From Candidatus Omnitrophota bacterium (GTDB taxonomy: Bacteria; Omnitrophota; Gorgyraeia; Gorgyraeales; Gorgyraeaceae): 64,000 nucleotides of DNA. The stretch's first letter is position 1. Every line of letters starts with the position of its first letter. The position numbers were made by a program, and so were the translations under genes. Positions 9,239 to 54,580 of this stretch are shown here, one piece after another. The stretch spans positions 112,015 through 176,014 of the forward strand of contig JBHPFI010000001.1 of NCBI GenBank assembly GCA_042572045.1. Direction: 5' to 3'. The notes beneath the pieces were generated by a model. It did not search any database. It was not told where the DNA came from and worked only from the letters and a program-made list of their open reading frames with translations.

Positions 9239-9288
9239 ATGCCACGCCTTTGTGGTTAGTGTATATATGATACTACTAAAAACTTATT

Positions 9289-9588
9289 TCAACGGTTTTC
9301 TTTACCCATAGGGTGTCTTTGAAAACTACCGTGAGAAAGAATGGATTTTATACTCCTAAATTTAATATAGCCCTTTTTACTGCCCATGGCTTCAATAACT
9401 AAAAAGCTTTCATCTCCTATCTTTTCTACCCCTAATATTCTTACCCTCTCAACTACCTCCAATTTACTCGCGCTAATTACATAGATAATATCATAAAAAG
9501 CATCTTTCTCAAACATGATATCATCAGCGGCATGAGCTAATGATGTGGCGAGTAAAACCATTGCCAGAGTGAGCAATATTTTCTTCAT
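9289..9588 (-). CDS. Small secreted protein (99 aa)
   Basis: ATG at 9588 behind AAGGAGG. Signal peptide MKKILLTLAMVLLATSLAHA. The track ORF extension to 9657 lies in repeat sequence. Confidence 0.6.
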   Translation of the reverse strand: MKKILLTLAMVLLATSLAHAADDIMFEKDAFYDIIYVISASKLEVVERVRILGVEKIGDESFLVIEAMGSKKGYIKFRSIKSILSHGSFQRHPMGKENR

Positions 9589-9637
9589 AAAATACCTCCT
9601 TAACCTCCTAAAACCTACACAAACTCCAACCTCTCCC

Positions 9638-10000
9638 CTACCAAACACTCCACCCAACCACCGCCCCTAAGACTATTACAAAAACCCCATACACCCGCCA
9701 AAATCCTTCAGAGCGGCCAATAAAATAGCTGAGTATGGATTTAAGCACATCGACAGGGGAAAACAGCATGAATAGGCCTTCAATCAGGGATAGAATACCC
9801 AGGACCTTTATAAGGCCCCCAAGGCGGGATACTGGATGAGCCCATAGAAATCCCACCCCAAATAATAAGGGTAAGATAAACAGGGCTTTTACAGGCTTTA
9901 CTATATTGCCATAGATGGTCTTGGATTTTTTGGGAAAGAAAAGAAATGCTATGCCTACGAGTATCCAGAATTTAGATATGAATAATAGGAAGATCTTCAT
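9638..10000 (-). CDS. 120-aa-family 4-TM membrane protein, paralogue 2
   Basis: Homologous to 8867-9238 and 41897-42262. A promoter module lies immediately upstream. Confidence 0.7.
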   Translation of the reverse strand: MKIFLLFISKFWILVGIAFLFFPKKSKTIYGNIVKPVKALFILPLLFGVGFLWAHPVSRLGGLIKVLGILSLIEGLFMLFSPVDVLKSILSYFIGRSEGFWRVYGVFVIVLGAVVGWSVW

Positions 10001-10028
10001 GTACCACGCCTTTGTGGTTAGTGTATAT

Positions 10029-10057
10029 ATGATACTGCTAAGGGGTCATTGAGTCAA
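10029..10057 (-). promoter_or_regulatory. Sigma70-type promoter module copy: TTGACT-17 nt-TATCAT
   Basis: Minus-sense -35 at 10057-10052, -10 at 10034-10029, exact 17-nt spacer. It is embedded in the last codons of the upstream gene. Confidence 0.6.
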
Positions 10058-11147
10058 GGTGAGGCGTCTTAACAAAAATTTGTTTTTGAATTTCCCACTT
10101 TTTTCTATCTTCAAGCGTAGCTTCTGCCGTAAGTGTCATAACCCCTGTAGAACCTCCAGCAAGGCCAGCTTTTAAAGCTTTTTCATATTCCTCTACGCTC
10201 ATCTTTTTAGGTTCATCTGTTGCCTGAACGATAGGCCAGACCTGTTTGTCTGTCTTGAGTTTTATCCATTGGGTTAATGAAATTATCCAGTCCGTATCTC
10301 TATAACATAATAAGTGGTAACTCATGGGCGAAAATACATCTATTACCTTAGAAAGCTTTTCTATATCCTGTCCAATGGCTTTATATATTGCATTATCAAA
10401 GTCTTCCTCTCTCCACGGAACTAAAAATATTCCTATAATCGCGTCTTTTCTGTATTTTGTTACTGCGTTTCTAATCTTTTTTGCTGTATCAACGATAACG
10501 TCACTCCTCCATTCATACCAATTTTCAGAATGATTTTTATATATCCATTGGGAAATCTCTTTTGTCGATTTCAGTTCTTCAGGGATCCTTACGCCTGTTT
10601 CATTTTGGAATCTCTTAAGACAACTTTTGCAAAAACATGTAAGTTGTATCTTAGGAACTTTTACTTCCCACCTTGTAGGCCATCTCATGAAATCAAGCCA
10701 TAATCCGTCGATTGGATATTCTCTTGCTATATCTTCCGCTTCCTCTATCTTTTGGTTAATTAGCCATTGCTGAGACGGGCAGATACCTGCATACCACCCA
10801 TCCATTTCCGCCAGACTCCCGTCTGATAATACCGGACGGGATTCAGGATGTTCGTCCCAGTAATGGTTGCCAGAGAACATCGACAATTCAGCATACGCCT
10901 TTACCCCATTTTTACGAAGCTGATTAATTATTGAATTATTAAGCGGGACATGCACGACAGCATTTATCCCACATCCCTTAAGATATTTTGATATTTGTTC
11001 GGGACTTTTATTTTTAAATACTGGTGATTTTAAAGGAAGAGTATAAATTGCCTTTGTTATTTGCTGTTCTCCAAACGATTTGGTCGCAAATAAAAATGAG
11101 AGGAGTATATAAAAAATAATATGCCCAAATTTTATTTGAGTCCCCAT
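10038..11147 (-). CDS. Secreted TIM-barrel glycoside-hydrolase-like protein (GHL10/DUF4015-type)
   Basis: Signal peptide. Motifs GINAVVHVP, AYAELSMF and PIDGLWLDFMRWP. The last ~10 codons (KTPHLDSMTP*) are encoded by the promoter repeat. Confidence 0.5.
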   Translation of the reverse strand: MGTQIKFGHIIFYILLSFLFATKSFGEQQITKAIYTLPLKSPVFKNKSPEQISKYLKGCGINAVVHVPLNNSIINQLRKNGVKAYAELSMFSGNHYWDEHPESRPVLSDGSLAEMDGWYAGICPSQQWLINQKIEEAEDIAREYPIDGLWLDFMRWPTRWEVKVPKIQLTCFCKSCLKRFQNETGVRIPEELKSTKEISQWIYKNHSENWYEWRSDVIVDTAKKIRNAVTKYRKDAIIGIFLVPWREEDFDNAIYKAIGQDIEKLSKVIDVFSPMSYHLLCYRDTDWIISLTQWIKLKTDKQVWPIVQATDEPKKMSVEEYEKALKAGLAGGSTGVMTLTAEATLEDRKKWEIQKQIFVKTPHLDSMTP

Positions 11148-11162
11148 CTTATCTTCCCCCTG

Positions 11163-12293
11163 CTACCCCCATATCCCCGGAATCTTGTGATTACAGGATG
11201 GACAGCGCCCGTTATGTATATTGTTTTTCAATACCTTGAAATGTATGCGGTGAATTAGGGTTGTATTACATTTTGGGCAAAAGGTGGAGTTATGTAGATG
11301 GCCCGGGACATTGCCTATAGTGACATAATCCAGGCCTGTCTCTTTTGCAATCTTATAGGCCTTTTCAAGGGTTTCTATTGGTGTGGGCGGGAGATTGATG
11401 AGGCGGTAGGATGGTGAAAACCTTGAAAAATGAAGCGGCACCTCATGACCTAGATTGTGTTTTATCCATTTGCACATATCCTGTATCTCGTCTGGATACT
11501 CGTTTATTGTGGGGATGACGAGATTTACAATCTCAAGCCATTTCCCTTCTCTTTTTATTATTTTTAATGCTTCCAGGACCGGCTCGAGCTCTGCAGAAGA
11601 ATTGTCATACGCTCTCTTGGAGAAGCCTTTCAGGTCAATGGTGGCTGCGTCTGTGTATTTTAAAAGCTCTCTTAGGGGCTTGGGGTTTAGCGAGCCATTG
11701 GAGTGCCAGAGGATACGCAAACCTTTTGTCTTGGCAATTTTTGCTATATCGTATACGTATTCGTAAAAAGATATAGGATCATTGTAGGTAAAAGAAAGGG
11801 TCGGGATTTTTCTTTTGAGAGCCTCGTCTACTGCCTCCTGCGGTGAAAGGTCATGGTAGGTCATCTGTTCTATGGAGCGCTGCGAGAGTTGCCAATTTTG
11901 GCAGTGTTGGCAGCGATAGTTGCAGCCAGCTGTACCAAAGCAAAGTATCTGGGTGCCTGGCAGCATATGGAGCTGCGGCTCTTTTTCAATAGGGTCGACC
12001 TGGATGGATGAAGGCCGGGAATGGACAATATTGTAAAGGGTGCCATTTGAGTTTTCTTTGTTGCGGCAAAAGCCTCTTTGCCCCTCTTTTATGATGCAGC
12101 GGCGGAAGCAGATTTCGCACTGGAGGGTACTGTCTTCGAGGCACTTATAAAACATTGCCTCTCGCTTCATCACGTTAGAGATCTTTGCCCACACTCTTTT
12201 TGCGAATATATTGGATGTGAAAACAAGAAATAGACATAGGGTGATTCTTTTTAAAAATGCCTTGCGGGAGATTTTTTGGTTAAGAAAAGTCAT
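11163..12293 (-). CDS. AmmeMemoRadiSam-type radical SAM enzyme (PFL-activase-like) with an N-terminal hydrophobic, Tat-like extension
   Basis: CEICFRRCIIKEGQRGFCRNKEN...GTAGCNYRCQHCQNW (CX3CX2C). C-terminal CPKC..CPSC. N-terminus contains ISRKAFLKRITLCLFLVF. Confidence 0.7.
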   Translation of the reverse strand: MTFLNQKISRKAFLKRITLCLFLVFTSNIFAKRVWAKISNVMKREAMFYKCLEDSTLQCEICFRRCIIKEGQRGFCRNKENSNGTLYNIVHSRPSSIQVDPIEKEPQLHMLPGTQILCFGTAGCNYRCQHCQNWQLSQRSIEQMTYHDLSPQEAVDEALKRKIPTLSFTYNDPISFYEYVYDIAKIAKTKGLRILWHSNGSLNPKPLRELLKYTDAATIDLKGFSKRAYDNSSAELEPVLEALKIIKREGKWLEIVNLVIPTINEYPDEIQDMCKWIKHNLGHEVPLHFSRFSPSYRLINLPPTPIETLEKAYKIAKETGLDYVTIGNVPGHLHNSTFCPKCNTTLIHRIHFKVLKNNIHNGRCPSCNHKIPGIWG

Positions 12294-12356
12294 TTCGACT
12301 CGTTCGAAGAGTATGACAAAAAGGCCTTAATTGCATATCTTTATTGTGCATCTTTT

Positions 12357-12385
12357 ATAATACTACTTTGGGCTCATTGCGTCAA
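12357..12385 (-). promoter_or_regulatory. Promoter module copy: TTGACG-17 nt-TATTAT
   Basis: Shares the spacer CAATGAGCCCAAAGTAG with the other copies. Lies ~65 nt upstream of the radical SAM gene ATG (12293). Confidence 0.55.
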
Positions 12386-12523
12386 GGTAAGGTGTTTTTG
12401 TGTTAAATGTGTGTAAGTAAAGGGGGAAATAATAGGTAAGCTATTCGTATCTTAATGCTGTCAATGCTATATTGACTTTTTACCAGGATTTACGTTATAA
12501 TAGTTCTTAAATAAAGGGGATGC

Positions 12524-12865
12524 ATGCTAAAAAGATATCAGGTGCTTTTAAATGACTGGATGGTACAACGCTTAAAAGAAGCTAGCGAGAGATACGATAT
12601 AAGTCAATCCGAAGTAATACGAATTTTACTATGCTTGCAGGCCATAAGGCTCGTATCTCAACTTTACCCCAAGCAATACAAAGACCCCGGTCTTGAAAAA
12701 GTTGTTCTAAATACCGCAACAAAAGTAAATAAAAAACAAGCTATAAGTTTAGAAGGATTTCATCGTCTTATATCGAAGATATATTACGAGGCACAAAAGG
12801 CAACAGAAGTTCGGGAAAAGCAAGAAAGCAAAATAAAAAATAACCGATCGATCATTCTCCGTTAA
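12524..12865 (+). CDS. Ribbon-helix-helix (CopG/Arc-like) protein
   Basis: N-terminus YQVLLNDWMVQRLKEASERYDISQSEVIRILL fits a beta-strand/helix/helix pattern. AGGGGA Shine-Dalgarno sequence upstream. Confidence 0.5.
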   Translation: MLKRYQVLLNDWMVQRLKEASERYDISQSEVIRILLCLQAIRLVSQLYPKQYKDPGLEKVVLNTATKVNKKQAISLEGFHRLISKIYYEAQKATEVREKQESKIKNNRSIILR

Positions 12866-12970
12866 AACCAAAACCCCCTAAAACCTACACAAATCCCAAC
12901 CTCTCCCTGCGGCGAATGTATATATATTATCTCTTAAATGTGTGTAAGTAGAGAGGAAATCAAAGGTAAG

Positions 12971-13050
12971 CTATTCGTATCTTAACGCCTCTATCGGATT
13001 AAGCTCGGACGCCTTTTTGGCAGGCCACAGGCCAAAAAACATACCTATCT
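12971..13050 (-). pseudogene. Orphan 3' fragment of a MacB/FtsX-type permease gene
   Basis: Encodes GMFFGLWPAKKASELNPIEALRYE* with an in-frame TAG two codons upstream. 40 nt (13008-13047) are identical to macB 24918-24957. Confidence 0.8.
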
Positions 13051-13084
13051 ATTCCCTGATTAACACTACATCCAGGACATGCTT

Positions 13085-15007
13085 TTATAACTGCAGATAG
13101 TCTTCAAGCGGCACGGTCTTCTGCGTTGGAGCATTCTTTTCTTTGTCCGTGTCAATAAACTGCATGCACCATATTTCAAAAGTCAACAGACAAAAGATAC
13201 GATACCCATGATGCTTCAGCTCGATTATTTCACGGGGTTTGATTTTCTGGCGAGGGAATTCATTGAAAATATGCTCAAGTGATCTATTATTGAAAAGACC
13301 TCGTCTCTTTAGACGACTAAGAAGTCTCTCCAGCACAATCGGCCGTTTTGTCAGGAATAAATGAAAAGGCACATCACAGCTTTGTTGGGCTGAATATACG
13401 TATTGTTCCGGCAGATAACGGAGCATCGCCATTTTATGGAACCTGCGTCTATGTCCGGTATTGGAAAGTTTCTGAAAGGTAGTCCCGTCATTAAGCCACT
13501 CCTTGGGCAGTGAGTTTATAAAGGTGATCAGCTTATTATTCAAATACGGCGAGTAATAGTTCATCCCGAATCCCTCTATCGGTTTTTGCGTCGGAGGAAG
13601 CATATACTGATACACTCCGTACAGCATTTTCGTTTCAATAAGGGCATCGAAAAAATTATCCTTGGTAAATGGCAAGTCTATCATACATTTGTGAAGCGAG
13701 ATCTCTTTAAAAGTCTCGGCATCAAGGATCTTTCTCACGGTCTCTATATTATAATGGCGGTACGAGCAAAGCCTGCCAAAAAAATCATCGTATATATTTT
13801 TTTCAGCAAAAAGAGAAAACACATGGTCACTTTCCCAGAAACGCTCCCAGTCATTTACCGAAAGTATTATTTTGTTCAATAGCCTGGCACCCTTACGTAA
13901 TATATACGGAAGACGCCTGAAATACCTGTGCCACTCGGCCACAGGATAATATTCTCCCCATAATGTATCTCCTGCGTCACCGGAGATCATGCTATCCACG
14001 TGTTTACGTGCCTCGAGGATGCACATAAATATAGGAAGCGCTCCCCCAGAAACAGGCTCCTCGACTATATTTATAAAATAAGGCACACAGTCTATAGCAT
14101 CCGGACCTATGACCACAGGATGATGGACCCCTCCGAACTTTTCGGTAATATAGCGTGCCTTCGGCGTCTCGTCAAAAGCGAAGTTCTCATAGGAAGCTGT
14201 AAAGGCATGAACAGGCTTACCAAAAAGCTTTGACGTCTGGATAAATGTAAAGCTAGTGTCGTGGCCGCCGCTTAGAAAACAACCAAGTTCTCCAGGCTTT
14301 ACACAGTTAAGAAAACTTCCGATACTTTTGCTGTAAACACTCTCGTATTCGTCAAGTTTAGCGTTAAGATCCGTGAACGGCCGCCTGTCAAAGATATATT
14401 CAGTTTTCCAGTGATCTGAAACAGTGTATGTTTTATCGTGAACATGGATAAATTGAGTAGGCAGAAGTTTTTTAACCCCCTCTAATTGCGTTTTTTCAGT
14501 ATATGAGAACCCCGTTCGCAAGAATGAAGGAAGCGCCTGTTTATCAAAAGGGGGTGTGTAAGGCAGCAGGTCGAGCAGCAGCTTAAGTGAGCTTGCGAAA
14601 AATAAAGCATTATCATTAGCACAATAATACAGTTGAGTGGCCTGGTGACGGCTGTTAAAAATGAACACTTCGCCTGATGTCCTGTCGTGTATCACGATTA
14701 TAAAAAAACCGTCGAGAAGGGAACAGAACCCCTTCCCTTCTTTAACAAATAGCTGTGCAACTAATTCTTCGAGATTATTTCGACTTGACTCAAAATAGGC
14801 ACCATCTGCCTTTATATCTAATATATCGCCTAATATTATCACTGAATGATTATCGGTAATTCTTGCAGGTCGCGACGAACGAACGGCAACACAAGATTGG
14901 CAATATTCGGCAGTAAAAGGAATCTGCTGGATCGGCTTAGATTCTTTGCCGTCAAGTAAGACCCGTCCAGCGATCGTATATTTATTTTTTAATTCCGGAA
15001 GATTCAC
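13085..15007 (-). CDS. Asparagine synthetase-family adenylating enzyme lacking the N-terminal catalytic Cys
   Basis: GTG start. N-terminus MNLPELKNKY has no Cys2. PP-loop variant CFLSGGHDTSFTF. 640 aa. Confidence 0.7.
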   Translation of the reverse strand: MNLPELKNKYTIAGRVLLDGKESKPIQQIPFTAEYCQSCVAVRSSRPARITDNHSVIILGDILDIKADGAYFESSRNNLEELVAQLFVKEGKGFCSLLDGFFIIVIHDRTSGEVFIFNSRHQATQLYYCANDNALFFASSLKLLLDLLPYTPPFDKQALPSFLRTGFSYTEKTQLEGVKKLLPTQFIHVHDKTYTVSDHWKTEYIFDRRPFTDLNAKLDEYESVYSKSIGSFLNCVKPGELGCFLSGGHDTSFTFIQTSKLFGKPVHAFTASYENFAFDETPKARYITEKFGGVHHPVVIGPDAIDCVPYFINIVEEPVSGGALPIFMCILEARKHVDSMISGDAGDTLWGEYYPVAEWHRYFRRLPYILRKGARLLNKIILSVNDWERFWESDHVFSLFAEKNIYDDFFGRLCSYRHYNIETVRKILDAETFKEISLHKCMIDLPFTKDNFFDALIETKMLYGVYQYMLPPTQKPIEGFGMNYYSPYLNNKLITFINSLPKEWLNDGTTFQKLSNTGHRRRFHKMAMLRYLPEQYVYSAQQSCDVPFHLFLTKRPIVLERLLSRLKRRGLFNNRSLEHIFNEFPRQKIKPREIIELKHHGYRIFCLLTFEIWCMQFIDTDKEKNAPTQKTVPLEDYLQL

Positions 15008-24826: not shown

Positions 24827-24880
24827 GGATCTCTCTTTTTAGCCGCAATTTCCTGCAGCTTCTAATAATGGAAATGTTAT

Positions 24881-26836
24881 TTATTCGTATCTCAATGCTT
24901 CGATAGGATTCAGTCGAGACGCCTTTTTGGCAGGCCACAGGCCAAAAAACATACCTACGGCTATAGAAAAACTTGCGGCAAGTATAATATTAGATATGGT
25001 AACTTTGGTAGCCCATCCAGCCAGGGACGAAAGCGTTATAGATGTTGCTATGCCAAGCAGTATGCCCATCAACCCCCCGCTCAATGTCATAACCACTGAT
25101 TCAATAAGAAACTGTGTCATTATGTCCTTCGCCTTGCCGCCTACTGCCTTGCGCAGGCCGATCTCACGAGTGCGCTCTGTCACAGAAACAAGCATGATAT
25201 TCATGATGCCTATTCCGCCCACAAGAAGCGATATAGCAGCAATGCAGCCCAAAAGCATGCTCATGGTCTTGGTGGTGCTTGATAGCATTTCCTGGATCTC
25301 ACTCATATTATGCATATGAAAATAATCATCGGGGTTCTTGTATATGCGGTGCCGCTTTATAATAAAGTCCCTTATATCATTCTCTGCCTCTTCCATGGAT
25401 TCGATATCGATTACCTCAGCATAAATACCGTCAAAATAATCTTTACCCAATACCCTGTACATAGCAGTAGTCACAGGGATATAGATGACATCGTCACGGT
25501 CCCGCCAGCCGCTTGCACCTTTTTCAGGCGCGATGCCAATCACCTTAAAATTAATCCGGTTTATCTTTATTGTCTCGCCGACAGGATTTATATTGCCGAA
25601 AAGTTTTTCAACCACGCTTCTCCCCAGTATCGCTACTTTAGCGCGCTGGTCCATTTCTTCAGAGGTAAACCACCTGCCTATATCAGGTATGGCTGCCCGC
25701 ATCTGGCCATAGTCATACCCGACCCCTTCTACCCTGGTACTCCAGTTCTCGCTTTTATATACGACCTGACCGCTTCCGCTGGCATATCCGCTTACTCTTT
25801 TTATCAAAGCCAGGTTTCCAATGCCTTCGGCATCTCCTGCCATAAAACGCGTCACAGATCCTGCTGCCCTGGCCGCGCCCCTGACTTTACCAGAACCTCC
25901 TTGTATAGATAAAAGATTAGAGCCGAGTGTCTTAAGTCTTTGTTCCATTGATGCCTTAGCTCCCTGTCCAAGCGCAAGCATTGCTATGACTGCTGCCACG
26001 CCAAACAAGATACCGAGCATTGAAAGAAACGACCGGACCTTATTTGAAAAAATAGCCCTGAATGACTGACGGACGTGTTCCTTGAACTCAACCTTACCAA
26101 AATAAGAATGGCCCTGGCCTGTCAGCTCTTTAATAGATACCTTGATGTCTTGGCGGCTTTTATTTTTGTCTTTGGCCTCATCAGAGACTATTTTACCATC
26201 GCGCATCGTTATGATCCTTTTTGCGTGCTGGGCGATTTCTTGTTCGTGCGTGACAAGGATTATAGTCTTACCCTGCGAGTTTAAGCCCTTTAGGATCTTT
26301 ATTATCTCTTCTTCGCTCTTTGTATCCAGGTTTCCTGTGGGTTCGTCTGCAAAAATGATCAGTGGGTCATTTACCAGCGCTCTCGCAATAGCCACTCTCT
26401 GCTGCTCGCCCCCTGATAATTCACTTGGCATATGTTTTGAACGTTCAGCAAGGCCTACTGACTCTAAATTCTTCCGAGCGTTTTCTATCCCCTTGTTTTT
26501 GCCGGAATAGATAAGGGGCAACTCCACGTTCTCAAGGGCGCTGGTCCTGCGAAGCAAATGAAACTGCTGGAATACAAAACCCACGAGTCGATTTCTAAGT
26601 TGTGCGAGTTCACCATCTGAGAGTTGTGAAATCTCAGTACCCAAAATATTATACGACCCTTTGTCTGGACGGTCCAAAAAACCCAGCATGTGAAGAAGAG
26701 TGGATTTACCTGAGCCAGAAGGTCCCATGATGGCCACAAATTCACCCTGACCGATATTAAGCGAAACATCGTCTAGTGCAGCAATAGACGCATCGCCTTT
26801 GCCATACGTTTTACAAATATTTTTTAGCTCTATCAT
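24881..26836 (-). CDS. macB: MacB-type ABC transporter (fused ATPase and FtsX permease)
   Basis: GPSGSGKST and LSGGEQQRVAIARAL. C-terminal four-TM FtsX domain ending EALRYE. Confidence 0.85.
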   Translation of the reverse strand: MIELKNICKTYGKGDASIAALDDVSLNIGQGEFVAIMGPSGSGKSTLLHMLGFLDRPDKGSYNILGTEISQLSDGELAQLRNRLVGFVFQQFHLLRRTSALENVELPLIYSGKNKGIENARKNLESVGLAERSKHMPSELSGGEQQRVAIARALVNDPLIIFADEPTGNLDTKSEEEIIKILKGLNSQGKTIILVTHEQEIAQHAKRIITMRDGKIVSDEAKDKNKSRQDIKVSIKELTGQGHSYFGKVEFKEHVRQSFRAIFSNKVRSFLSMLGILFGVAAVIAMLALGQGAKASMEQRLKTLGSNLLSIQGGSGKVRGAARAAGSVTRFMAGDAEGIGNLALIKRVSGYASGSGQVVYKSENWSTRVEGVGYDYGQMRAAIPDIGRWFTSEEMDQRAKVAILGRSVVEKLFGNINPVGETIKINRINFKVIGIAPEKGASGWRDRDDVIYIPVTTAMYRVLGKDYFDGIYAEVIDIESMEEAENDIRDFIIKRHRIYKNPDDYFHMHNMSEIQEMLSSTTKTMSMLLGCIAAISLLVGGIGIMNIMLVSVTERTREIGLRKAVGGKAKDIMTQFLIESVVMTLSGGLMGILLGIATSITLSSLAGWATKVTISNIILAASFSIAVGMFFGLWPAKKASRLNPIEALRYE

Positions 26837-29056: not shown

Positions 29057-29196
29057 TGTAAATCCTTATATTGTTATATATAATATACTACTTTAAATAG
29101 AAATGCAAAGATCTGTGAAAAAATTTATGGGGAATTTTGAAAGATTTTGAAATGCCTACCGCAAATCTTTTCCACGCCTTTATGGTTAGTGTATAT

Positions 29197-29225
29197 ATGA
29201 TACTACTAAGGGGCTATGCAGGCAA
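29197..29225 (-). promoter_or_regulatory. Promoter module copy: TTGCCT-17 nt-TATCAT
   Basis: Same -10 and downstream ATATACACTAACCATAAAGGCGTGG as the other copies. Lies ~140 nt upstream of the tolC-like ATG. Confidence 0.5.
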
Positions 29226-29246
29226 TGGGATTATTGATCTAATGCC

Positions 29247-35199: not shown

Positions 35200-35440
35200 A
35201 ATTTTTACCCCCTAAACAAAAAGCCAATCCCTCTCCAAATCACTCTTTTAACAGCCTCTCTCTTCGTCTATCCTCTCCACCTAACCTTAACTACTGCTCT
35301 ATCAAATCTCTAAATCTTTTCTCCACCTTGCCCTGTTCTTTAGGGCAAGGCCTAAAACCCCCTCTCCTTAATCTTCTAAACAGACCTGACCCCTTTACTA
35401 TTTAAACAGATTGCGTTAATATATGATTGGAAGTGCCATT

Positions 35441-35755: not shown

Positions 35756-35826
35756 TCTCATTTCTTTTTCCGCTGCGCCCTCTTTAACAAAAAAGCAATC
35801 CCCTGTATTCTAATACCCTAACTCCC

Positions 35827-35895
35827 CTACTCCACACTCCAACCAACCATCACCCCTAAGAGTATTACAAAAACCCCATACAATCGGCAACATCC
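35827..35895 (-). pseudogene. 3' remnant of a 120-aa-family membrane protein gene
   Basis: Encodes GCCRLYGVFVILLGVMVGWSVE*. Closest to paralogue 3. No upstream ORF. Confidence 0.7.
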
Positions 35896-36029
35896 TTATC
35901 CCTTTCTCAGCGTTTTTTATTTTACCTCTAAGTACCCTATCCTTAACGCCAGCTCCAATAAACATATATTAATAATAACAATAAATAATGCTCAAATTAA
36001 CTTCTTTTTTTAAGGTTAAGTGTTTGGTT

Positions 36030-37967: not shown

Positions 37968-38160
37968 AACTTTAACCCCCCCTCCTAAAAGAAAAGGCAA
38001 CCTTGGCTTTATGTCAGAATTGCCTTATGCCTTACAAATATAATAATTTCCTAATCATCTCTTGCTCTATTGTGGAGATTCTAATAAATCCTGCCACCCC
38101 ATTGTGGCCTGAAAACACACAAAAAGGCCTTAATACATACTGTATCTTTGTATGCAATAT

Positions 38161-38189
38161 ATGGTACTACTTTGGGCTCATTGAGTCAA
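38161..38189 (-). promoter_or_regulatory. Promoter module copy: TTGACT-17 nt-TACCAT
   Basis: Exact 17-nt spacer CAATGAGCCCAAAGTAG. Begins 10 nt after the rlmD-like stop. Confidence 0.55.
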
Positions 38190-38220
38190 GGTAAGGTGTC
38201 TTTGTGTTTATTATCGATCA

Positions 38221-40042: not shown

Positions 40043-40693
40043 TTATAATGTCTCAGGGTATCCTACAGTCTGCGTAAGTATTATCTTTTGATCGGGGCGT
40101 AGTTTCATGGCCTCTCTCAAGGTAGGTTTGTCTATCCAGCCTCTCACTACTGTTGCCAGCCCTTCTGAAGCGCAGTATAAATATACATTCTGACTGATAA
40201 ACCCGGTATCTGTGGCAGCGTAAAAATACTTATCCTTGTCCTGCATACCGCCCATTTTGGAATAATCAGCAACATAGATAAGGTTCAAAGGAGCATCTTT
40301 AACAAATGCCTGTAAGCCAGTAAGCCCCCTTATATCCTTTGATATAATAGGTAAGAGCATATTTGATGTAGCATCATATGCATACAGCCCATCAGATTTA
40401 GCCACATAGATATCTATCTCCTGCATGTTCTTTGCAGAAGGAGCTGTGCGCTTAGATGATCCTGGGCGGTTTATCCCGTTTGCAGCCCAGAGCATGTCTG
40501 AAAGTACCTGTAAAGGGATATCTCTGGAGCTAAACGCTCTTTCGCTTTTTCTTTCTTTTAATATCTGCATCAAGGGGTTACCTGTTTCTGTCTGTGGTGC
40601 GGGGAGAGTGATTGCTTTTAATTCTTCGGCATAGACAGAAGATGCCTGTGTCGCAAGAAAGATCAGGAATATAAAAACTTTAAGTCTCATCAT
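40043..40693 (-). CDS. Secreted nitroreductase / SagB-type dehydrogenase family protein
   Basis: Signal peptide. RKSERAFS...LWAANGINR...IYVA..GLYAY...YLYCASEGLATVVRG. Confidence 0.65.
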   Translation of the reverse strand: MMRLKVFIFLIFLATQASSVYAEELKAITLPAPQTETGNPLMQILKERKSERAFSSRDIPLQVLSDMLWAANGINRPGSSKRTAPSAKNMQEIDIYVAKSDGLYAYDATSNMLLPIISKDIRGLTGLQAFVKDAPLNLIYVADYSKMGGMQDKDKYFYAATDTGFISQNVYLYCASEGLATVVRGWIDKPTLREAMKLRPDQKIILTQTVGYPETL

Positions 40694-41896: not shown

Positions 41897-42262
41897 CTAC
41901 CCCACACTCCACCCAACCACCACCCCTAAGAGTATTACAAAAACCCCATACAATCGGCAACATCCTTCAGAGCAGCCCAAGAAGTAGCTGATTGTGGATT
42001 CAAGCATATTGACAGGGGAAATCAGTATGAATAGACCTTTAATCAAGGATATAATACCCAGGACCTTTATAAAGAGTGCAAGGCGAGATACTGGGTGAGC
42101 CCATAGAAATAACACCCCAAACAATAAGGGTAAGATAAATGCGGTTTTTACAACAGGATTCATTAGATCAGTATAGAGTGTCTTGGATTTTTTGGGGAAG
42201 AGAATAAATGCTGTTCCTATAGATATCCAGAATATAGATATGAATGATAGAAAGATCTTCAT
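41897..42262 (-). CDS. 120-aa-family 4-TM membrane protein, paralogue 3
   Basis: Homologous to 8867-9238 and 9638-10000. Lies 24 nt downstream of the Cys-rich gene. Confidence 0.7.
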   Translation of the reverse strand: MKIFLSFISIFWISIGTAFILFPKKSKTLYTDLMNPVVKTAFILPLLFGVLFLWAHPVSRLALFIKVLGIISLIKGLFILISPVNMLESTISYFLGCSEGCCRLYGVFVILLGVVVGWSVG

Positions 42263-42499: not shown

Positions 42500-42633
42500 A
42501 GCTACCTATCAAAGCTTTATACCAGAATTGCCTTATCTCTTACAAATATAATAATCTCCTCATCATCTGCCACCCCGTTGTGGCCTAAAAACACACAAAA
42601 AGGCCTTAATGCATGTATCTCTATATGTAACAT

Positions 42634-42662
42634 ATGATACTACTTTGAGCTCATTGAGTCAA
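42634..42662 (-). promoter_or_regulatory. Promoter module copy: TTGACT-17 nt-TATCAT
   Basis: Exact 17-nt spacer CAATGAGCTCAAAGTAG. Lies ~135 nt upstream of the Cys-rich gene. Confidence 0.6.
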
Positions 42663-42779
42663 GGTAAGGTGTCTTTGTGTTAAATGGGGATAAGTAAATG
42701 GGAAATGGTGGAATTTTAGTGACACTTTGAAACGTGCTTCTGGGGTAGGTGGTGTGAGGTTTTGAGAGTAACAGGGGGG

Positions 42780-43716: not shown

Positions 43717-44025
43717 TTACTTCTTCTTTTTTACATTTAAATTAATGTCTTTAATCTCATCTAAAATGCCTCGTGTTTTTTTAGTATATGCTCCTTTACT
43801 TTTAGGACGGTTGGCTATAGTTTTTCCTAATTCATAATATAACTTCTCTCTCTGTAAAATAAGAGTTATTTTTTCTAACTCCCTTTTTCCTTTTACAGAT
43901 TTGTCTTTAAGGTAAGTTTCTCCTTTCTCAACTAAGGGCTCAATGCCTTTTAAAACCTTACTTAAGTCCTTTTGTGCAATCTTCCATAACCTATTTATTG
44001 TCTTCTCAAGTTCTTTTCTTTTCAT
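43717..44025 (-). CDS. Hypothetical Lys-rich coiled-coil protein
   Basis: 102-aa ORF. 4-nt overlap with the upstream phosphoesterase gene. Confidence 0.45.
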   Translation of the reverse strand: MKRKELEKTINRLWKIAQKDLSKVLKGIEPLVEKGETYLKDKSVKGKRELEKITLILQREKLYYELGKTIANRPKSKGAYTKKTRGILDEIKDINLNVKKKK

Positions 44026-44822
44026 ACTTCCACCCCCTTTATTATTTTATGGTTAAACGCTTCCCTGAGCCATATCTTGCCTGCATCATAAGCTAGGTAA
44101 GTCGGCGTGGCGCTGTCCACCCATGTCCCGCAATTTGCGTATATGCCTTTGTCTATACTCTCAAGCTGGCATCTGTGCGTATGCCCGAATATAACTACCC
44201 TAGCCCCATTATCTATGCGCCCCTTGACAGCCTCATTGAATTCTCCAAAATGGCCGCCCTTTCTTAAATATTCTCCTGACGAAGGCGTAATCTTGTTTCT
44301 TATAAATGCGGCATGACCGATAAAGGCTTCTGTGTTTTCCAGTGCCTTTTCCAGCCATACATCGACATTAGGGCTAACCAACCTTTCTAAACTGGCGGCA
44401 AGCAGCGCAAATCGCCTACCGCTGGGCCATTTGATTGACTGCAAGGGGTTTTTGTAGCGGTTGAATACGTCGTATCTGTGGCCGTGTTCGGCTATAATCC
44501 CGATTTCAGGATCATGGTATTCTAGACACACGCCAATCCCTGAACCTGTAAATTTTATAAAGGGTATATAGTCATGGTTGCCGATAACATAGGTTACTTT
44601 TATTTTATTTCTTAAAGATAAGACTTTAGTTATGACTTCATTGTGCCTGAATAGAATCCTGTCGAGGTCAGCCTGCCATAATTCCAAGAAATCCCCCACG
44701 ATAACCAGCTCCTGAGCCTCGTTTTCAACAAATTCAAGGAATTTCAACAGCTCTCTGTCTCGATGAAAATCATCTGTCTTTGAACCATCGCCTAAATGTA
44801 GGTCGCTTATAAAAATCTTCAT
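44022..44822 (-). CDS. Calcineurin-like metallophosphoesterase (LpxH-like architecture)
   Basis: ISDLHLGDG, VGDFLELW, GNHDY, HGHRYD and GHTH. Confidence 0.75.
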   Translation of the reverse strand: MKIFISDLHLGDGSKTDDFHRDRELLKFLEFVENEAQELVIVGDFLELWQADLDRILFRHNEVITKVLSLRNKIKVTYVIGNHDYIPFIKFTGSGIGVCLEYHDPEIGIIAEHGHRYDVFNRYKNPLQSIKWPSGRRFALLAASLERLVSPNVDVWLEKALENTEAFIGHAAFIRNKITPSSGEYLRKGGHFGEFNEAVKGRIDNGARVVIFGHTHRCQLESIDKGIYANCGTWVDSATPTYLAYDAGKIWLREAFNHKIIKGVEV

Positions 44823-45946: not shown

Positions 45947-46040
45947 TTTTATCCTCTCCACCTAAGTTTAGTCACTATTCCATCGAATCCCTATCTTTAC
46001 CAGCCTTGGCCTCTGCCACGCCATTGTGGCTAGTGTATAT

Positions 46041-46069
46041 ATGATACTACTTTGAGCTCATTGAGTCAG
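46041..46069 (-). promoter_or_regulatory. Promoter module copy: CTGACT-17 nt-TATCAT
   Basis: Same spacer CAATGAGCTCAAAGTAG. Lies ~95 nt upstream of the tpx ATG. Confidence 0.5.
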
Positions 46070-46138
46070 TTGGAGAAAGCTTATTTACAGTTCAAGCTTC
46101 CCTGTTTCTTATCGATCATCAGATGCCTTTATTTGTTC

Positions 46139-47910: not shown

Positions 47911-47936
47911 GGTTCAATTTTACTCCAATATTCTTT

Positions 47937-48809
47937 TTATTTCAGGGCATTTGAAGGCGCAAATCCTGTAAATTCATAGAATTTCGTGGAATCAAGCACT
48001 ACCTTGCCGATACGCGGCGGACCGTTCTTCTCGTCAAAACGGGAAGAACGAATTAAGAACTCCTCTTGATATCCGCGTTCTTGGACAAGATATGCCCCAA
48101 TATCATATAGGCTGTATTCTTGTGACCCGCCACAATGGAATATACCTTTTCCTTTTTTATCAAAAAAATGAACGACCCCCTTAGCTACATCTCTGGTTGT
48201 GATCAAGGATCTTATTTCATCGTGGAAAAGCGTCATTTTTTTATTTTTACTAAGTCTTTTTGCAATAAAGTCTATAGGCCCTTTTGTCCCTGAAATCGAG
48301 GGTCCTATCGGTAGCCCAAGGCGTATTATTCCACTCCTTTCGTGCTGTAGGATCTCGTTCTCTGCTTCTACAAAGGTTCTGCCGACCACGCTGACAGGAT
48401 CGCACACCGACGACTCCGAATAACAATCAACGGGGTCATTTCCCGAAAAGACTAAGTCTGTACTAATGTATAACAAATAGCTATCTTTTGACAAGCTGAC
48501 CATATTGCGGGTGCCTAGAACATTCACTTGATGAGCAAAATCGGGAGAGTCTTCGCACCTGTCGAGATCACAGACCCCTCCCGCGTGTACGACAGCTTTA
48601 GGCTTGACCTTATCAAAGATCTCTTTTATCTTAGAAAACTTCTCCATGGTGCAAAAAAATACTTTTTTGTCATTTTTGAAAAACTTGGAGTTAATGCCTG
48701 GTCCGATACCATATACGCGTTTTCCGTATTTCTCTCTAAACGCAGAAAAGATAGGCCATCCGTGAATGGATGTTATGCCTGTTATAAGGATATTATCAGA
48801 ATTTTGCAT
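47937..48809 (-). CDS. NAD(P)-dependent sugar-nucleotide reductase/epimerase (RfbD-like SDR)
   Basis: ILITGITSIHG Rossmann start. 290 aa. Extended-SDR layout. Confidence 0.6.
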   Translation of the reverse strand: MQNSDNILITGITSIHGWPIFSAFREKYGKRVYGIGPGINSKFFKNDKKVFFCTMEKFSKIKEIFDKVKPKAVVHAGGVCDLDRCEDSPDFAHQVNVLGTRNMVSLSKDSYLLYISTDLVFSGNDPVDCYSESSVCDPVSVVGRTFVEAENEILQHERSGIIRLGLPIGPSISGTKGPIDFIAKRLSKNKKMTLFHDEIRSLITTRDVAKGVVHFFDKKGKGIFHCGGSQEYSLYDIGAYLVQERGYQEEFLIRSSRFDEKNGPPRIGKVVLDSTKFYEFTGFAPSNALK

Positions 48810-48924
48810 AAATAAATATTTGCTGGGTTTCCCTTCATTTTAAGCACCGGTTTCACATCTTTATTTTCCAGGGCAATTCTTTTCTATTTTCTTGTTTCAT
48901 ATTATCATTTTAAATGATGGGATT

Positions 48925-50541: not shown

Positions 50542-50569
50542 GTTTTAAAATCCTTTAATATTGGTAGAT

Positions 50570-50599
50570 AAAAAAGGGCCCTGTTTTTAAGCAGGGCCC
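50570..50599 (-). terminator. Intrinsic terminator
   Basis: GGGCCCTG / CAGGGCCC stem followed by TTTTTT on the minus strand. Confidence 0.7.
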
Positions 50600-50790
50600 G
50601 CATATCACCCATTTCCTATTAAACTTAGCTTATTTTATCAAACACTGTTCGAATTTGCAAGAAAAAAGCCTCTCCCTTGGCCAATCCCTCACCAATCCAT
50701 CTAGTCCCTATATTATACCTTAGCCAATCCTGCCTTCGCCAACCCCTCTCCAAATCACTTTTTTGACTCCCTCAGCCCTAGCCTACTAGC

Positions 50791-51123
50791 TCAATTACGA
50801 ACCCGACCTTTGCTTTTCAGTTTTTCAGCTTGTTTCTTGGCCTTTCGAGCTTCTTTCTCAGTCTTCTTTTTGGCTTTTTTAGCTTCTTTTTCTGCTCGCT
50901 TTGCAGCCCTCTTTGCCTTTCGCTTTGCTATTATAGCTTCTTTTTCTCCCTCAGATTTTCCTATAGTAGAAAACCAATCTCCTGCGCGATTGAATATAGC
51001 TTCATCGCTGGCATGCTCGTAGGCCTTTGTGCTCGCGCCCCTCCTACCACCCTCTGCAGCAAACGCAGCTGTTGAAACCATAACAAAAGCTAATACTAAA
51101 ACTAATGTCATAAGCTTTCTCAC
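50791..51123 (-). CDS. Secreted Lys/Ala-rich low-complexity protein
   Basis: Signal peptide, then a KRKAKRAAKRAEKEAKKAKKK tail. Confidence 0.5.
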   Translation of the reverse strand: MRKLMTLVLVLAFVMVSTAAFAAEGGRRGASTKAYEHASDEAIFNRAGDWFSTIGKSEGEKEAIIAKRKAKRAAKRAEKEAKKAKKKTEKEARKAKKQAEKLKSKGRVRN

Positions 51124-51153
51124 AACTAACCTCCTATTTATCTAAGAGTCCTG

Positions 51154-51492
51154 TCAGAATCCAAAACTCTTCTTAGCATCGCCTACTGCAGCCTTCGCAG
51201 CAGATTCTAATGCACTCTTGGCCTTATCAAGCAATGCCTTTGCTTCCTGAGAATCGCTATCCACATATCTCAAGATATACTGGGCAATATCAACTGCGCC
51301 CTGAAATTCTTTTGAATTATAGAATGCCTTTGCCTGGCCAACAAGATATTGCGCTTTTTCTTCCGCTGTCTCCATGCCTTTTGCGACATTTATTGCGGCA
51401 CTACTAGACCCTTCCTTTGCTTGACCACAGCCAGCCAATGCCAATCCGAACATCAAACCACACACCAGAACCACAGATATAGCATTCCTCAT
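51154..51492 (-). CDS. Lipoprotein (112 aa)
   Basis: ATG at 51492 behind AAAGGAG. Lipobox LALAGC. Confidence 0.55.
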   Translation of the reverse strand: MRNAISVVLVCGLMFGLALAGCGQAKEGSSSAAINVAKGMETAEEKAQYLVGQAKAFYNSKEFQGAVDIAQYILRYVDSDSQEAKALLDKAKSALESAAKAAVGDAKKSFGF

Positions 51493-51508
51493 ATCACACC
51501 GCTCCTTT

Positions 51509-52321
51509 CTATTGCTTTTCATTATACATATGGACATCCCTTTGTGGGAATGGGATAGTAATACCATTCTTTTCTAACTCCAACTTACCTTTCTCTAAGG
51601 TATCAAAGCGAACAGCCCAGTAATCTTGAGGTTTTACATAAGGTCTGCATACAAGGTTTACACTACTATCACCCAGCTCTGAAACAGCAATGACAGGTTT
51701 GGGATCCTTTAATACTCGTGGATCAGAAGATACTACTTTTTCCAATGCCTCCTTTGCAGTTTTTATATTGTCACTATATGAGATACCAAAAACCAGATCA
51801 ACTCTTCTTTTCTGAATAGCGCTGAAATTGGTAATATTATCCCCTGTGACTTTTGAGTTAGGGACAACAATGCGCCTATTATCAAAATGGTCTAAGATTG
51901 TATTGAATATTTGAATTTCTACAACTGTTCCCATAGTTCCAGAAACGGCAATAAAATCACCAACCTTAAACGGTTTAAAGATAATAAGCAGCACTCCTGC
52001 AGCAAAATTAGATAGAGAGCCTTGGAGAGCTAGACCAACGGCTAAACCTGCAGCACCTATTACGGCAATAAAAGATGTTGTCTGAATGCCAAGCTTACCA
52101 AGGGCAGCTATTACTACAAAGACCATGAGCCCCACATAGGAGATATTCTTGACAAAAGATGCCAGTGTCTTTTCAGTATTAGCCTTTATCATTAACTTTT
52201 CAATAACCCTGGAAACAATACGGGCCAGCCATTTACCAATAATAAAGATAGCTATAGCTGCCATAAAACTCAGCCCATATGTTATAATATACACATGCAG
52301 CTTATCTAAAGCCTCTTCCAT
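51509..52321 (-). CDS. mscS: Small-conductance mechanosensitive channel
   Basis: GAAGLAVGLALQGSLSNFAAGVLLIIFKPFKVGD. Confidence 0.85.
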   Translation of the reverse strand: MEEALDKLHVYIITYGLSFMAAIAIFIIGKWLARIVSRVIEKLMIKANTEKTLASFVKNISYVGLMVFVVIAALGKLGIQTTSFIAVIGAAGLAVGLALQGSLSNFAAGVLLIIFKPFKVGDFIAVSGTMGTVVEIQIFNTILDHFDNRRIVVPNSKVTGDNITNFSAIQKRRVDLVFGISYSDNIKTAKEALEKVVSSDPRVLKDPKPVIAVSELGDSSVNLVCRPYVKPQDYWAVRFDTLEKGKLELEKNGITIPFPQRDVHMYNEKQ

Positions 52322-52355
52322 GTTTCCCGCCTTTCTTTACTGCTACTATAAACTA

Positions 52356-52526
52356 CTACTTCTTCTTCTTGCCTACCAAGAAGTAAAGCACCATGCCTAT
52401 AATAGGCAATACCAATATGAGGATAATCCATAGCGCTTTCTTTCCTGTATCCATTGAACTCTTTACAGCATCAACAATAGCTATGATATCCAACACCACT
52501 ACTACTAGACCCAGTATTCCGCCCAT
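52356..52526 (-). CDS. 56-aa PLDc_N-type small membrane protein
   Basis: Below the track cutoff. AAAGGAGGG Shine-Dalgarno sequence. MGGILGLVVVVLDIIAIVDAVKS..KALWIILILVLPIIGMVLYFLVGKKKK. Confidence 0.6.
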   Translation of the reverse strand: MGGILGLVVVVLDIIAIVDAVKSSMDTGKKALWIILILVLPIIGMVLYFLVGKKKK

Positions 52527-52650
52527 AATAACCCTCCTTTTATCTAAAAACGGTTTTTATTTACCAAAACCTCCGAACACTTTCTTGACTTTTTCCACGC
52601 CTGCCTTTGCTGTATCAGCCAGGGCGTTCTTTAATGCTAGCCTCCTTTCC

Positions 52651-53727
52651 TTATTTTTCAAACAATTTTTTATACTCAGGGTATCCTTCTTTTTCCAGGT
52701 CTTCTTTTGGTATAAACCTTAAAGAAGCAGAGTTTATGCAATAGCGCAGGCCTGTAGGATTAGGGCCATCTGTAAACACGTGGCCAAGATGAGAATCAGA
52801 GAACTTAGTTTTTACCTCAGTTCTTATCATAGAAAGGCTTTTGTCCTCTTTTTCAATGATACTTCCTTTCTCGAGAGGTTTAGTAAAGCATGGCCAGCCA
52901 GTGCCTGAATCAAACTTGTCTAAAGAGCTAAAAAGAGGCTCGCCTGATATCACATCCACATATATCCCCTCTTTTTTATTGTCCCAGTACTTATTTTTAA
53001 AAGAAGGCTCAGTGCCGCGCTCTTGTGTAACCTTGTACTGTAAAGGCGTGAGTTTGGCTTTAAGTTCTTCTTTAGATAGTTTAGATACTTTGGATACTTT
53101 TTTATAAGCCTTGGGTTTTTTCTGTAAAGTTTGTTTCCATTTTTCCTTTATATATAGATCGCGGCCTGAACCAGATTTATAACGATTGTACTTTAAGGGG
53201 CATGTCTTGTAATAATCCTGGTGATAATCTTCTGCCTTGTAAAACGTAGAGGCCTGGATGATTTCTGTAACAATAGGTTTTATAAATTTTCCGGATTTCT
53301 CTAATTTTACCTTTGATTCTTCTGCCTCTAGCTTTTGCTCCCGGGTATGATAGAAAATAGCTGTTTTATACTGTGTGCCCCTATCAGCAAACTGCCCTCC
53401 TTCATCAGTCGGGTCTATCTGCCTCCAGAATACCTCGAGAAGTTCTTTATATGTTATTTTGGAGCTGTCATATGTGACTTCGACTGTCTCTAGATGACCT
53501 GTCGTTCCTGATGATACCTCTTTGTAAGTCGGATTCTTTCTGCCTCCACCTGTATATCCAGATACAACATCCCTGACCCCTTCTAGTTCTTCAAAAGGCG
53601 CCTCCATGCACCAGAAACAGCCACCAGCGAATGTGGCTTTTTCAAACCTTGTACCTGCTTGAGCGTTAGACTGAACTATAAAAAACATAAAAAATGCAGT
53701 TGAATATTTTAAAACTTTACTTGTCAT
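52651..53727 (-). CDS. msrAB: Periplasmic bifunctional methionine sulfoxide reductase MsrA-MsrB
   Basis: Signal peptide. GGCFWCME (MsrA). [11 protein letters not shown] (MsrB). Confidence 0.85.
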
Positions 53728-53738
53728 ACCTATTACTT

Positions 53739-54482
53739 TTATTTTACTTCAATCTCTATATCTGGATTAAAAGGATTTGTCCTTACTGCCAAAGAGAATA
53801 AGTAAGGATAGTTATCTTTCAAATGCTTCATATAATCCAGCCATTCTGATATTAAATAGCCATAGGCTCTTTTTAAATCTCCTGACAGGTGTTCATAATC
53901 ACTTTTTGGTAAATTAGAAAGACTCTTTCTGTGGATCAGCTCTTCGGTTAAATGAAACGTTGCCCATAAAAGATTGGTAAATGATTCGTGTTCTAATAAG
54001 TTCTGATTTTCTAAAAGCCCAAGAAGAAACTGCCTTCTGTTGCTTAAAAATGCTTTCAGGTCTTGTAAATCCACTTTTTTTATATCAATATTAAAAGATT
54101 GCTTATTAAAATCTTTGCGCTTCTTTAAGAATTCCTTGCTTGGCCATTCGTTTATATTAGTGAGTTTTTTATTTATGCTATTTATATCTAAATTAGAAAC
54201 TGAAAGAATCTTCAATAACTCCGTACCTACATCGCTAAAGAACGCGCCTATTACCATATAAAGTTTATTCAACAGCACTTTTTTCTCCCGGTAATCAAGT
54301 AATTGGTGTAGTATCAGGGTAACTAATAAAACTTCAAAAAACACAAAGGCGATATCGCCTATCATATAAATGAATATATGATGAGCATCTCTAAATATAG
54401 CAAAATGTATAAGATAAACAATAGCAGATAAAGCTATAAGCGTTGTTCCAAAAAATAACTGCCAGTTTAAAAATTTCTTCAT
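53739..54482 (-). CDS. Membrane protein (2 TM plus a cytoplasmic domain), function unknown
   Basis: 247-aa ORF behind GGTGGAGAGGG. It shares its 5' leader with tpx. Confidence 0.55.
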
Positions 54483-54580
54483 AACGTTTTACCCTCTCCA
54501 CCTAATCTTAGTCACTACTCCATCGAAGCCCTATCTTTACCAGCCTTGCCATCTACTACATCATTGTGGCTAGTGGGAAT

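Follow-up and report, generated by a model that had tools for sequence, protein, structure and literature searches.

A CCAC-N6-GTGG palindrome carried by a repeated promoter block in an Omnitrophota genome as a possible weak leader stem-loop

What does a short palindrome do when it recurs behind near-identical promoters? A 64,000-nucleotide (nt) stretch of the genome of a Candidatus Omnitrophota bacterium (assembly GCA_042572045.1, contig JBHPFI010000001.1, positions 112,015 to 176,014), hereafter the window, raises this question through several copies of the palindrome CCAC-N6-GTGG. An initial annotation of the window offered two answers: a dimeric repressor operator lying over the transcription start site, or an RNA hairpin with a 4-bp stem that sequesters the ribosome-binding site. 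We know of no experimental information on transcription signals in the Omnitrophota, a phylum without a cultured model organism. We compared the copies with one another and with loci from related sequences (fetched loci carry L numbers). The reading we arrived at is tentative, with a probability of roughly 0.4: the palindrome would form a weak 5'-proximal stem-loop in RNA, whose native setting is the leader of a cassette encoding a membrane protein of 120 amino acids (aa). The repeated promoter block in which it sits is the better supported, and the more interesting, object.

The exact motif, CCACNNNNNNGTGG, occurs five times in the window (at 9242, 10004, 38094, 42570 and 46016), compared with a mean of 0.15 exact motifs in dinucleotide-shuffled sequences, none of 100 of which reached five. 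Besides these there is a one-mismatch copy, CCATAAAGGCGTGG, at 29172 and a degenerate copy, CCACAATGATGTAG, at 54556-54569, all at the sites where the initial annotation had placed them. Relative to the downstream minus-strand genes, every copy is oriented CCAC..GTGG:

9242..9255, minus strand: palindrome CCACAAAGGCGTGG, following the -10 hexamer by 11 nt and preceding the ATG of a 123-aa paralogue by 3 nt
10004..10017, minus strand: palindrome CCACAAAGGCGTGG, with a fifth A-T pair possible, 3 nt before the ATG of the 120-aa gene
29172..29185, minus strand: variant CCATAAAGGCGTGG, with a U.G wobble in RNA at the changed position, more than 100 nt upstream of the OEP/HlyD/MacB efflux operon
38094..38107, minus strand: palindrome CCACAATGGGGTGG, with a 5-bp stem GCCAC/GUGGC, 53 nt after the -10, within the long leader of the PhoU-like/GDSL-TPR operon
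42570..42583, minus strand: palindrome CCACAACGGGGTGG, with a 5-bp stem, 50 nt after the -10, within the long leader of an operon encoding a 70-aa protein and a 121-aa paralogue
46016..46029, minus strand: palindrome CCACAATGGCGTGG, with a 5-bp stem, opening the leader (about 85 nt) of the thiol peroxidase (tpx)/rubrerythrin operon
54556..54569, minus strand: degenerate copy CCACAATGATGTAG, one pair of which is broken, within the 247-aa/MsrAB operon leader

The hexamer coordinates confirm the proposed fixed spacing. On the minus strand, the -10 hexamers of five copies end at 9267, 10029, 29197, 46041 and 54581, and the corresponding palindromes start at 9255, 10017, 29185, 46029 and 54569, leaving a gap of exactly 11 nt in each. 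The two long-leader copies, described earlier as lying about 50 nt downstream, do so at 53 nt (38161 to 38107) and 50 nt (42634 to 42583). Equally, the palindrome ends 3 nt before the ATG of two 120-aa-type paralogues, the open reading frames (ORFs) at 8867-9238 and 9638-10000, as had been stated. Such start-codon proximity is found in two of the seven window copies, the rest lying 50 to more than 100 nt upstream of their gene.

Every palindrome sits in a repeated promoter block of sigma-70 type, ACACCTYACC-TTGACT-CAATRAGCCCAAAGTAG-TATCAT-ATATACAC, of which the window holds eight copies, the eighth (12346-12396, upstream of a radical-SAM gene) being without a palindrome. Scanning with a consensus of a TTGACT-like hexamer, a 17-nt spacer and TATCAT (or TATAAT, TACCAT) returned positions 10057-10029, 29225-29197, 38189-38161, 42662-42634, 46069-46041 and 54609-54581, in agreement with the earlier suggestion that the copies share a promoter. 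The blocks, together with one additional leader segment, are:

9256..9300, minus strand: block with an intact -10 (9272-9267) and a damaged -35 region (2 nt missing)
10018..10068, minus strand: block TTGACT-17-TATCAT, whose spacer holds the stop codon of the upstream DUF4015-like gene
12346..12396, minus strand: block TTGACG-17-TATTAT, before the radical-SAM gene, with a long leader and no palindrome
29186..29236, minus strand: block TTGCCT-17-TATCAT
38150..38200, minus strand: block TTGACT-17-TACCAT
42623..42673, minus strand: block TTGACT-17-TATCAT
46030..46080, minus strand: block CTGACT-17-TATCAT
54570..54620, minus strand: diverged block TTGTCC-17-TATAAT
38108..38160, minus strand: extra leader segment of about 45 nt between the -10 and the palindrome, ending in an invariant ATTAAGGCCTTTTTGT

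To establish how the palindromes are related, we aligned the leaders around the motif. Seventeen leaders can be aligned, 13 of which keep the dyad with at most one deviation, and the lineage consensus is CCAC-AAnGGs-GTGG. Two forms can be distinguished: CCAC-AAAGGC-GTGG-YAYATG, found mostly before 120-aa genes or their remnants (a truncated 36-aa ORF in L017, only the gene ends in L008a, and deletion derivatives in L014 and L020), and CCAC-AAYGGS-GTGG-CAG, found in longer leaders. Outside block leaders, no CCAC-N6-GTGG was detected in 296,296 bases comprising the window and all fetched loci, some of them overlapping or unrelated. The palindromes all descend from a single leader lineage and, because all copies are homologous by descent, the enrichment over shuffled sequence counts repeat copies and not independent sites. 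The initial annotation had named precisely this outcome, a hitch-hiking repeat without enrichment beyond the repeat copies, as the one that would speak against a functional motif, and it is what we found within the sampled sequence. Conservation in diverged copies nevertheless keeps a functional reading alive, as set out below. The cassettes from which the leader probably derives are:

9638..10000, minus strand: 120-aa small membrane-protein gene, whose native leader carries the palindrome
8867-9238 and 41897-42262: paralogues of the 120-aa gene
35813-35897: what is left of a further 120-aa paralogue, its 3' end only (a fourth, decayed cassette)

At NCBI, the 120-aa protein has an identical entry, ACFL0P_00565, from a Candidatus Omnitrophota bacterium, encoded on a 176-kb contig. 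Internal-deletion remnants similar to the one at 35813-35897 were also observed in L008 (1888-1960) and in L014/L020. A palindrome leader ancestral to the whole 120-aa family was considered and rejected, since distant homologues use a second promoter family or AAGGAGG sites within operons. This second family, TTGACT-TATCCCCATTTAAGAGC-TAMTAT-ATAT, has a likewise conserved spacer and was seen at 12396-12428, 12927-12959 and 42673-42705 in the window, as well as in L004 (8230-8300), L024 (6290-6350) and L038 (2270-2330); it drives the 120-aa homologues of more distant genomes, and degenerate copies of it lie directly upstream of several main-block copies, forming tandem promoters.

The location of the palindrome with respect to the start of transcription was addressed through two loci, L005 and L019, in which the start codon of a conserved 141-aa gene lies 9 nt past TATCAT, preceded by an in-frame TAG and without an alternative start. 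The differences between the two genes are mostly synonymous. These genes encode a membrane protein and have no Shine-Dalgarno sequence (in L005, on the minus strand, the ATG is at position 3059 of the reverse complement, and in L019 at 5409, likewise of the reverse complement). Apparently leaderless Omnitrophota mRNAs, or nearly so, they support TATCAT as the -10 and place +1 at 7-10 nt after it. The motif would therefore span approximately +3 to +18 and lie immediately beyond the start site instead of covering it. The suggestion that the palindrome covers the expected start site is accordingly not upheld, since it begins about 2-5 nt further downstream; we infer a stem beginning at around +2 to +6, and if the element acts as RNA the transcripts would be expected to start ACUAACCAC or AACCAC.

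The conserved centre of the motif, AAnGG, is asymmetric and Shine-Dalgarno-like, and lies 8 nt from the ATG of the 120-aa genes. Copies lacking the right arm read AAGGAG at the same spot (CCACAAAGGAGTATTAATG in L022, CCAAAAGGAGACGATG in L013b), which supports the proposal that the two 120-aa genes are preceded by no Shine-Dalgarno-like sequence other than AAAGG. An extended pairing of AAAGGCGUGG with the 3' end of 16S rRNA was rejected on inspection by hand, as only AAAGG pairs. The hairpin model of the initial annotation, in which the ribosome-binding site is sequestered, fails because the Shine-Dalgarno-like bases lie in the hexaloop and most copies (five of seven) are far from a start codon; the stem, moreover, is weak.

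Pairing between the arms was then assessed across the lineage. Over 16 sequences, 85% of the alignment cells of the 5-bp stem are paired, against 20-60% in slid controls, and double-sided changes are seen at three of the five pairs: an A-U to G-C exchange at the outer (fifth) pair and two in L012, which refolds as GUGC/GCGC. The copy at 29172 has a single U.G wobble; it and L012 preserve pairing only through G.U, with the symmetry of the DNA broken, which favors an element acting as RNA. The two copies at about +50 point the same way, a position unusual for an operator. Of 500 shuffles, 5 to 19 attain the observed pairing values, in a data set with few independent events and three broken copies, and calibration of the pairing tool indicated that sequences related by descent may outscore shuffles even when they have no structure. 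The search for compensatory changes proposed at the outset came out divided, the paired cells and the double changes standing in its favor and the scarcity of events and the three broken stems against it.

Together, these observations are consistent with a 14-nt unit that would be the first structured element of the mRNA, as judged from the putative start site. Its short stem of 4-5 bp would close a hexaloop displaying the Shine-Dalgarno-like AAAGG. In the native cassette the right arm would fill the 8-nt gap from the Shine-Dalgarno-like sequence to the AUG, which would make the element part of the ribosome-binding architecture. From the 120-aa cassette the stem-loop would have been carried to other leaders, where any copy could act as a weak 5'-proximal structure tuning translation or 5'-end-dependent decay. 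It would work at the level of RNA, not as an operator bound by a protein on DNA, and probably to small effect. The leaders of Escherichia coli ompA and Bacillus subtilis aprE carry 5'-terminal stabilizing stem-loops with much longer and stabler stems. The hairpin described here resembles them in lying a few nt from the inferred 5' end regardless of the downstream gene, but its stem is of only 4-5 bp, two copies lie about 50 nt from the start, and the 5' end is itself a prediction.

Several observations weigh against a stem-loop. Information content across 25 distinct block copies is high from about -47 to about +8, the entire spacer included, and then drops sharply, with the left arm CCAC moderately conserved and the right arm not conserved; since it falls after about +8, the palindrome lies outside the conserved block core and belongs to one leader subfamily. 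The dyad is broken and yet followed by long ORFs in several copies, namely in L013a/L015a, which read CCAC..GTCC (409 aa), in L022 (188 aa) and at 54556 in the window. Short-leader stems are weak, at -2.8 to -6.4 kcal/mol, and their z-scores (+0.1 to -1.9) are indistinguishable from those of shuffles, the only outliers being the two 5-bp long-leader copies (z = -3.5 at 38094 and -2.5 at 42570). The covariation rests on very few independent events. Finally, a 4-6-4 dyad at +3 to +16 whose half-sites are centred 10 bp from each other also has the look of a repressor site.

The weakness of these stems and the loss of the dyad before long ORFs both fit a palindrome without function, one that would have arisen as a chance 4+4 dyad in one ancestral leader and been multiplied with the block by copying and gene conversion. 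We regard this as a serious rival, if rather unlikely; the single lineage, the lack of any occurrence elsewhere in 296 kb and the demonstrated concerted evolution of the copies all fit it, as does the persistence of the dyad in decayed cassettes, where tiny ORFs follow GTGG-CATATG (L008a, L034) or GTGG-CAAATG (L037). The chance of finding GTGG at a usable distance from a given CCAC would be a few percent. What argues against it is some evidence that the 14-nt unit may be under constraint. In the lineage, the left arm has a mean pairwise identity of 0.88, the right arm one of 0.79 and the loop one of 0.77, compared with 0.60 in the 5' flank and 0.55 in the 3' flank. In L037, a diverged promoter (TTGCCT-N18-TATCAT) keeps G-CCAC-AGAGGA-GTGG-C, with the ATG 3 nt on, amid drifted surroundings; all eight stem bases and the G-C fifth pair are retained where the flanks are about 55-65% identical, an outcome with a probability of about 0.03 by our own calculation. 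The motif is also intact beyond the insertion of about 45 nt in the two long-leader copies, and the unit is retained in the leaders of PhoU-like orthologues whose proteins share 76% aa identity.

The same geometry that resembles a repressor site would suit a DNA operator on which a dimeric repressor, bound to CCAC-N6-GTGG at about +3 to +16, blocks RNA polymerase at envelope and oxidative-stress promoters. The dyad is perfect and lies at a fixed 11 nt from the -10 in five copies, its arms are conserved above loop positions 3 and 6, and the downstream genes have a stress theme (tpx and rubrerythrin, MsrAB, OEP/HlyD/MacB efflux). In its dyad, in the spacing of its half-sites by one helical turn and in its position just downstream of the -10, the arrangement is reminiscent of lac O1-type operators; it differs from them in having half-sites of only 4 bp, no cognate regulator found, no independent sites and an asymmetric AAnGG centre. 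With just 8 bp specified, no occurrence beyond one homologous leader lineage in 296 kb, no regulator gene within the 64 kb (none of the approximately 55 window ORFs was found to have a regulator domain), two copies 50-53 nt downstream of the -10, and variants at 29172 and in L012 that retain RNA pairing at the expense of DNA symmetry, we consider an operator decidedly unlikely, though it stays a serious rival. No support was found for the RHH protein at 12524-12865, which had been put forward as a candidate regulator: it gives a sub-threshold match to the BrnA antitoxin, has no match among solved structures, and is preceded by its own, different dyad.

CsrA/RsmA proteins recognise GG-containing loops of short hairpins that overlap the Shine-Dalgarno sequence. 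Binding of the stem-loop by a global RNA-binding regulator of this type would suit the short stem closed by C-G, the hexaloop with its conserved A..GG and the loop AGAGGA of L037. The loops of the window, however, read AAAGGC, AATGGC, AATGGG and AACGGG, the GG being followed by C or G instead of A; it also stands one position off the register of an ANGGAN loop, and no CsrA-like ORF or domain was found among the small ORFs of the window, making this an extremely improbable explanation.

Other candidate identities were discarded. An intrinsic terminator was rejected, as no U-run follows the stem and only the 38094 copy barely passes a lax scan, and the geometry would not fit a BstXI-like or Type I restriction site or a REP/RAYT or IS200 hairpin. 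Rfam (gathering thresholds) and tRNA scans of the window returned no matches, and RNAalifold found no covariation-supported pairs in the long leaders or in the 85-nt leader shared by tpx and msrAB. The latter (about 85 nt) is common to tpx/rubrerythrin (45947-46046), 247-aa/MsrAB (54487-54586) and, in part, a PilZ gene (35269-35312), and reads ..GGCAAGGCTGGTAAAGATAGGG.TTCGATGGA.TAGTGACTAA..TTAGGTGGAGAGG, with no conserved fold found.

Preferring a stem-loop for the palindrome, we turn to the block that carries it. DNA-pattern scans covered one genome per species (GTDB species representatives) and metagenome contigs, and located the block in five other Omnitrophota assemblies (CAYPYS01, CAZWYD01, JAHILY01, CAYULJ01 and JABMRA01) and in eleven further stretches among the metagenome contigs; additional copies were found adjoining homologous genes, and no match was obtained in the viral contigs scanned. 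The CAZWYD01 (L005), CAYPYS01 (L006) and CAYULJ01 (L008) records are labelled 'uncultured Planctomycetia', labels that are probably wrong, because the Omnitrophota block is present in them and homologues of window genes are also found in L008 and on the CAYPYS01 contig. The carriers all appear to be Omnitrophota. In the window the block precedes genes for 120-aa membrane proteins, radical SAM, OEP/HlyD/MacB efflux, PhoU-like, tpx and msrAB, and elsewhere it stands before genes for a zinc-ribbon protein, a PEGA-domain protein and the leaderless 141-aa protein. An origin as the ancestral tpx promoter was rejected, as tpx orthologues with 93%, 82% and 80% aa identity lack the block and occur in other operon contexts.

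Comparison of loci revealed both the age of the block and its link with changes in gene order. It is old, being placed upstream of the PhoU-like (76% aa identity) and radical-SAM (66%) genes in both the window and L008; -35, spacer and -10 are almost identical within these pairs, whose leaders are unrelated. After the DUF4015-like gene, the coding flank of L013 and L015 is 94% nt-identical to the window and similarity stops just past the block, the orthologous site being followed by three different downstream sequences. The block marks breakpoints, or rearrangement junctions, of gene order. In L013, a close relative (87-91% aa identity for the genes concerned), a metallophosphoesterase and a nitroreductase gene adjoin the DUF4015-like gene with only a block copy between them (2568-5400), and the same three genes are spread over 34 kb in the window (44022-44822, 40043-40693 and 10038-11147), a repeat-associated rearrangement or deletion. 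The spacer reads CAATGAG in all five intact window copies (10041-10057, 12369-12385, 38173-38189, 42646-42662 and 46053-46069) and CAATAAG or CAATAAC in all block copies from other genomes, the 94%-identical relatives included. The confinement of CAATGAG to the window copies constitutes a signature of gene conversion, or concerted evolution, within the genome. Spread of the block appears to be driven by recombination among repeated cassettes.

Three copies have an additional feature. Segments similar to that at 38108..38160 also occur at 42584-42633 and 12294-12356, and the terminal ATTAAGGCCTTTTTGT is the downstream arm of an inverted repeat whose other arm lies just upstream of the -35. Inverted repeats of this kind, of 14-21 nt and 76-86% complementarity, surround the promoter core in the three long-leader copies only (38112-38132/38192-38212, 42593-42608/42665-42680 and 12316-12329/12388-12401), and could represent a miniature-transposon-like unit or a structure in transcripts from an upstream tandem promoter.

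These properties invite comparison with the putative mobile promoters defined by at least 80% identity over at least 50 nt before non-homologous genes in one genome (Matus-Garcia, Nijveen and van Passel, 2012; PMC3575422). Like them, the block is a near-identical upstream sequence found before non-homologous genes in several species and without an Rfam match in the window, with eight copies before different genes in the window and a distribution shared across taxa (5 species genomes, 11 contigs). In contrast to them, the copied unit takes in the -10, the start site and some of the leader, the spacer is almost invariant between species, the copies show concerted evolution and mark rearrangement junctions, and spread is apparently by cassette recombination and not by a known transposition mechanism. 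Correia elements of Neisseria and ERIC, promoter-bearing miniature repeats cited in the same work, are likewise short, intergenic and promoter-supplying, and the three long-leader copies with a 14-21-nt inverted repeat round the core resemble them. The short-leader copies, however, have no terminal inverted repeats, no target-site duplication was seen and no transposase was found, and the palindrome lies outside the inverted repeat.

The surroundings are those of a cellular genome of Gram-negative type. Window genes encode OEP/HlyD/MacB efflux components, an MMPL transporter, a LolA-like protein, asparagine synthases, a radical-SAM enzyme, thiol peroxidase, rubrerythrin, MsrAB, and rRNA and tRNA methyltransferases. 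A phage origin, suspected from the repeated strong promoters, was rejected: megablast against phage records gave no match, the genes are cellular, NCBI assigns the organism to the Omnitrophota, and there were no hits in viral contigs.

Around the only plus-strand gene of its region (12524-12865, a 113-aa RHH-like ORF), direct repeats of about 63 nt (12396-12458 and 12927-12988) were observed. The gene has its own promoter, TTGACT-18-TATAAT, at 12472-12501, overlapped over the -35 by the dyad GTCAAT-N5-ATTGAC, and the region has the appearance of a small inserted cassette. At 12872-12907 there is a remnant of the leader normally found after the 120-aa gene. Further on, an 86-nt repeat (84% identical; 12962-13047 and 24872-24957) forms a bidirectional terminator-like hairpin, TTTTTGGC-N9-GCCAAAAA, from which it follows that the genome reuses terminator modules as well as promoter modules.

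At its most far-reaching, the evidence could be taken to mean that the block of about 55 bp and the stem-loop form a portable Omnitrophota cassette, with the spacer recognised by a dedicated factor or contacted in an unusual way by the holoenzyme, the stem-loop serving as a tag for a global RNA regulator, and a phylum-specific envelope and oxidative-stress regulon spreading by recombination; we would hold this to be very unlikely. The palindrome is at most a small leader element, and its lesson is that apparent enrichment comes from repeat copying. The block, in turn, is a fresh example of an already known phenomenon, and a clear case of promoter propagation, of concerted evolution of regulatory DNA and of repeat-mediated change in gene order. 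Near-invariant, spacer included, it provides a concrete, testable sequence for studies of promoters and start sites in the Omnitrophota, and could serve heterologous expression.

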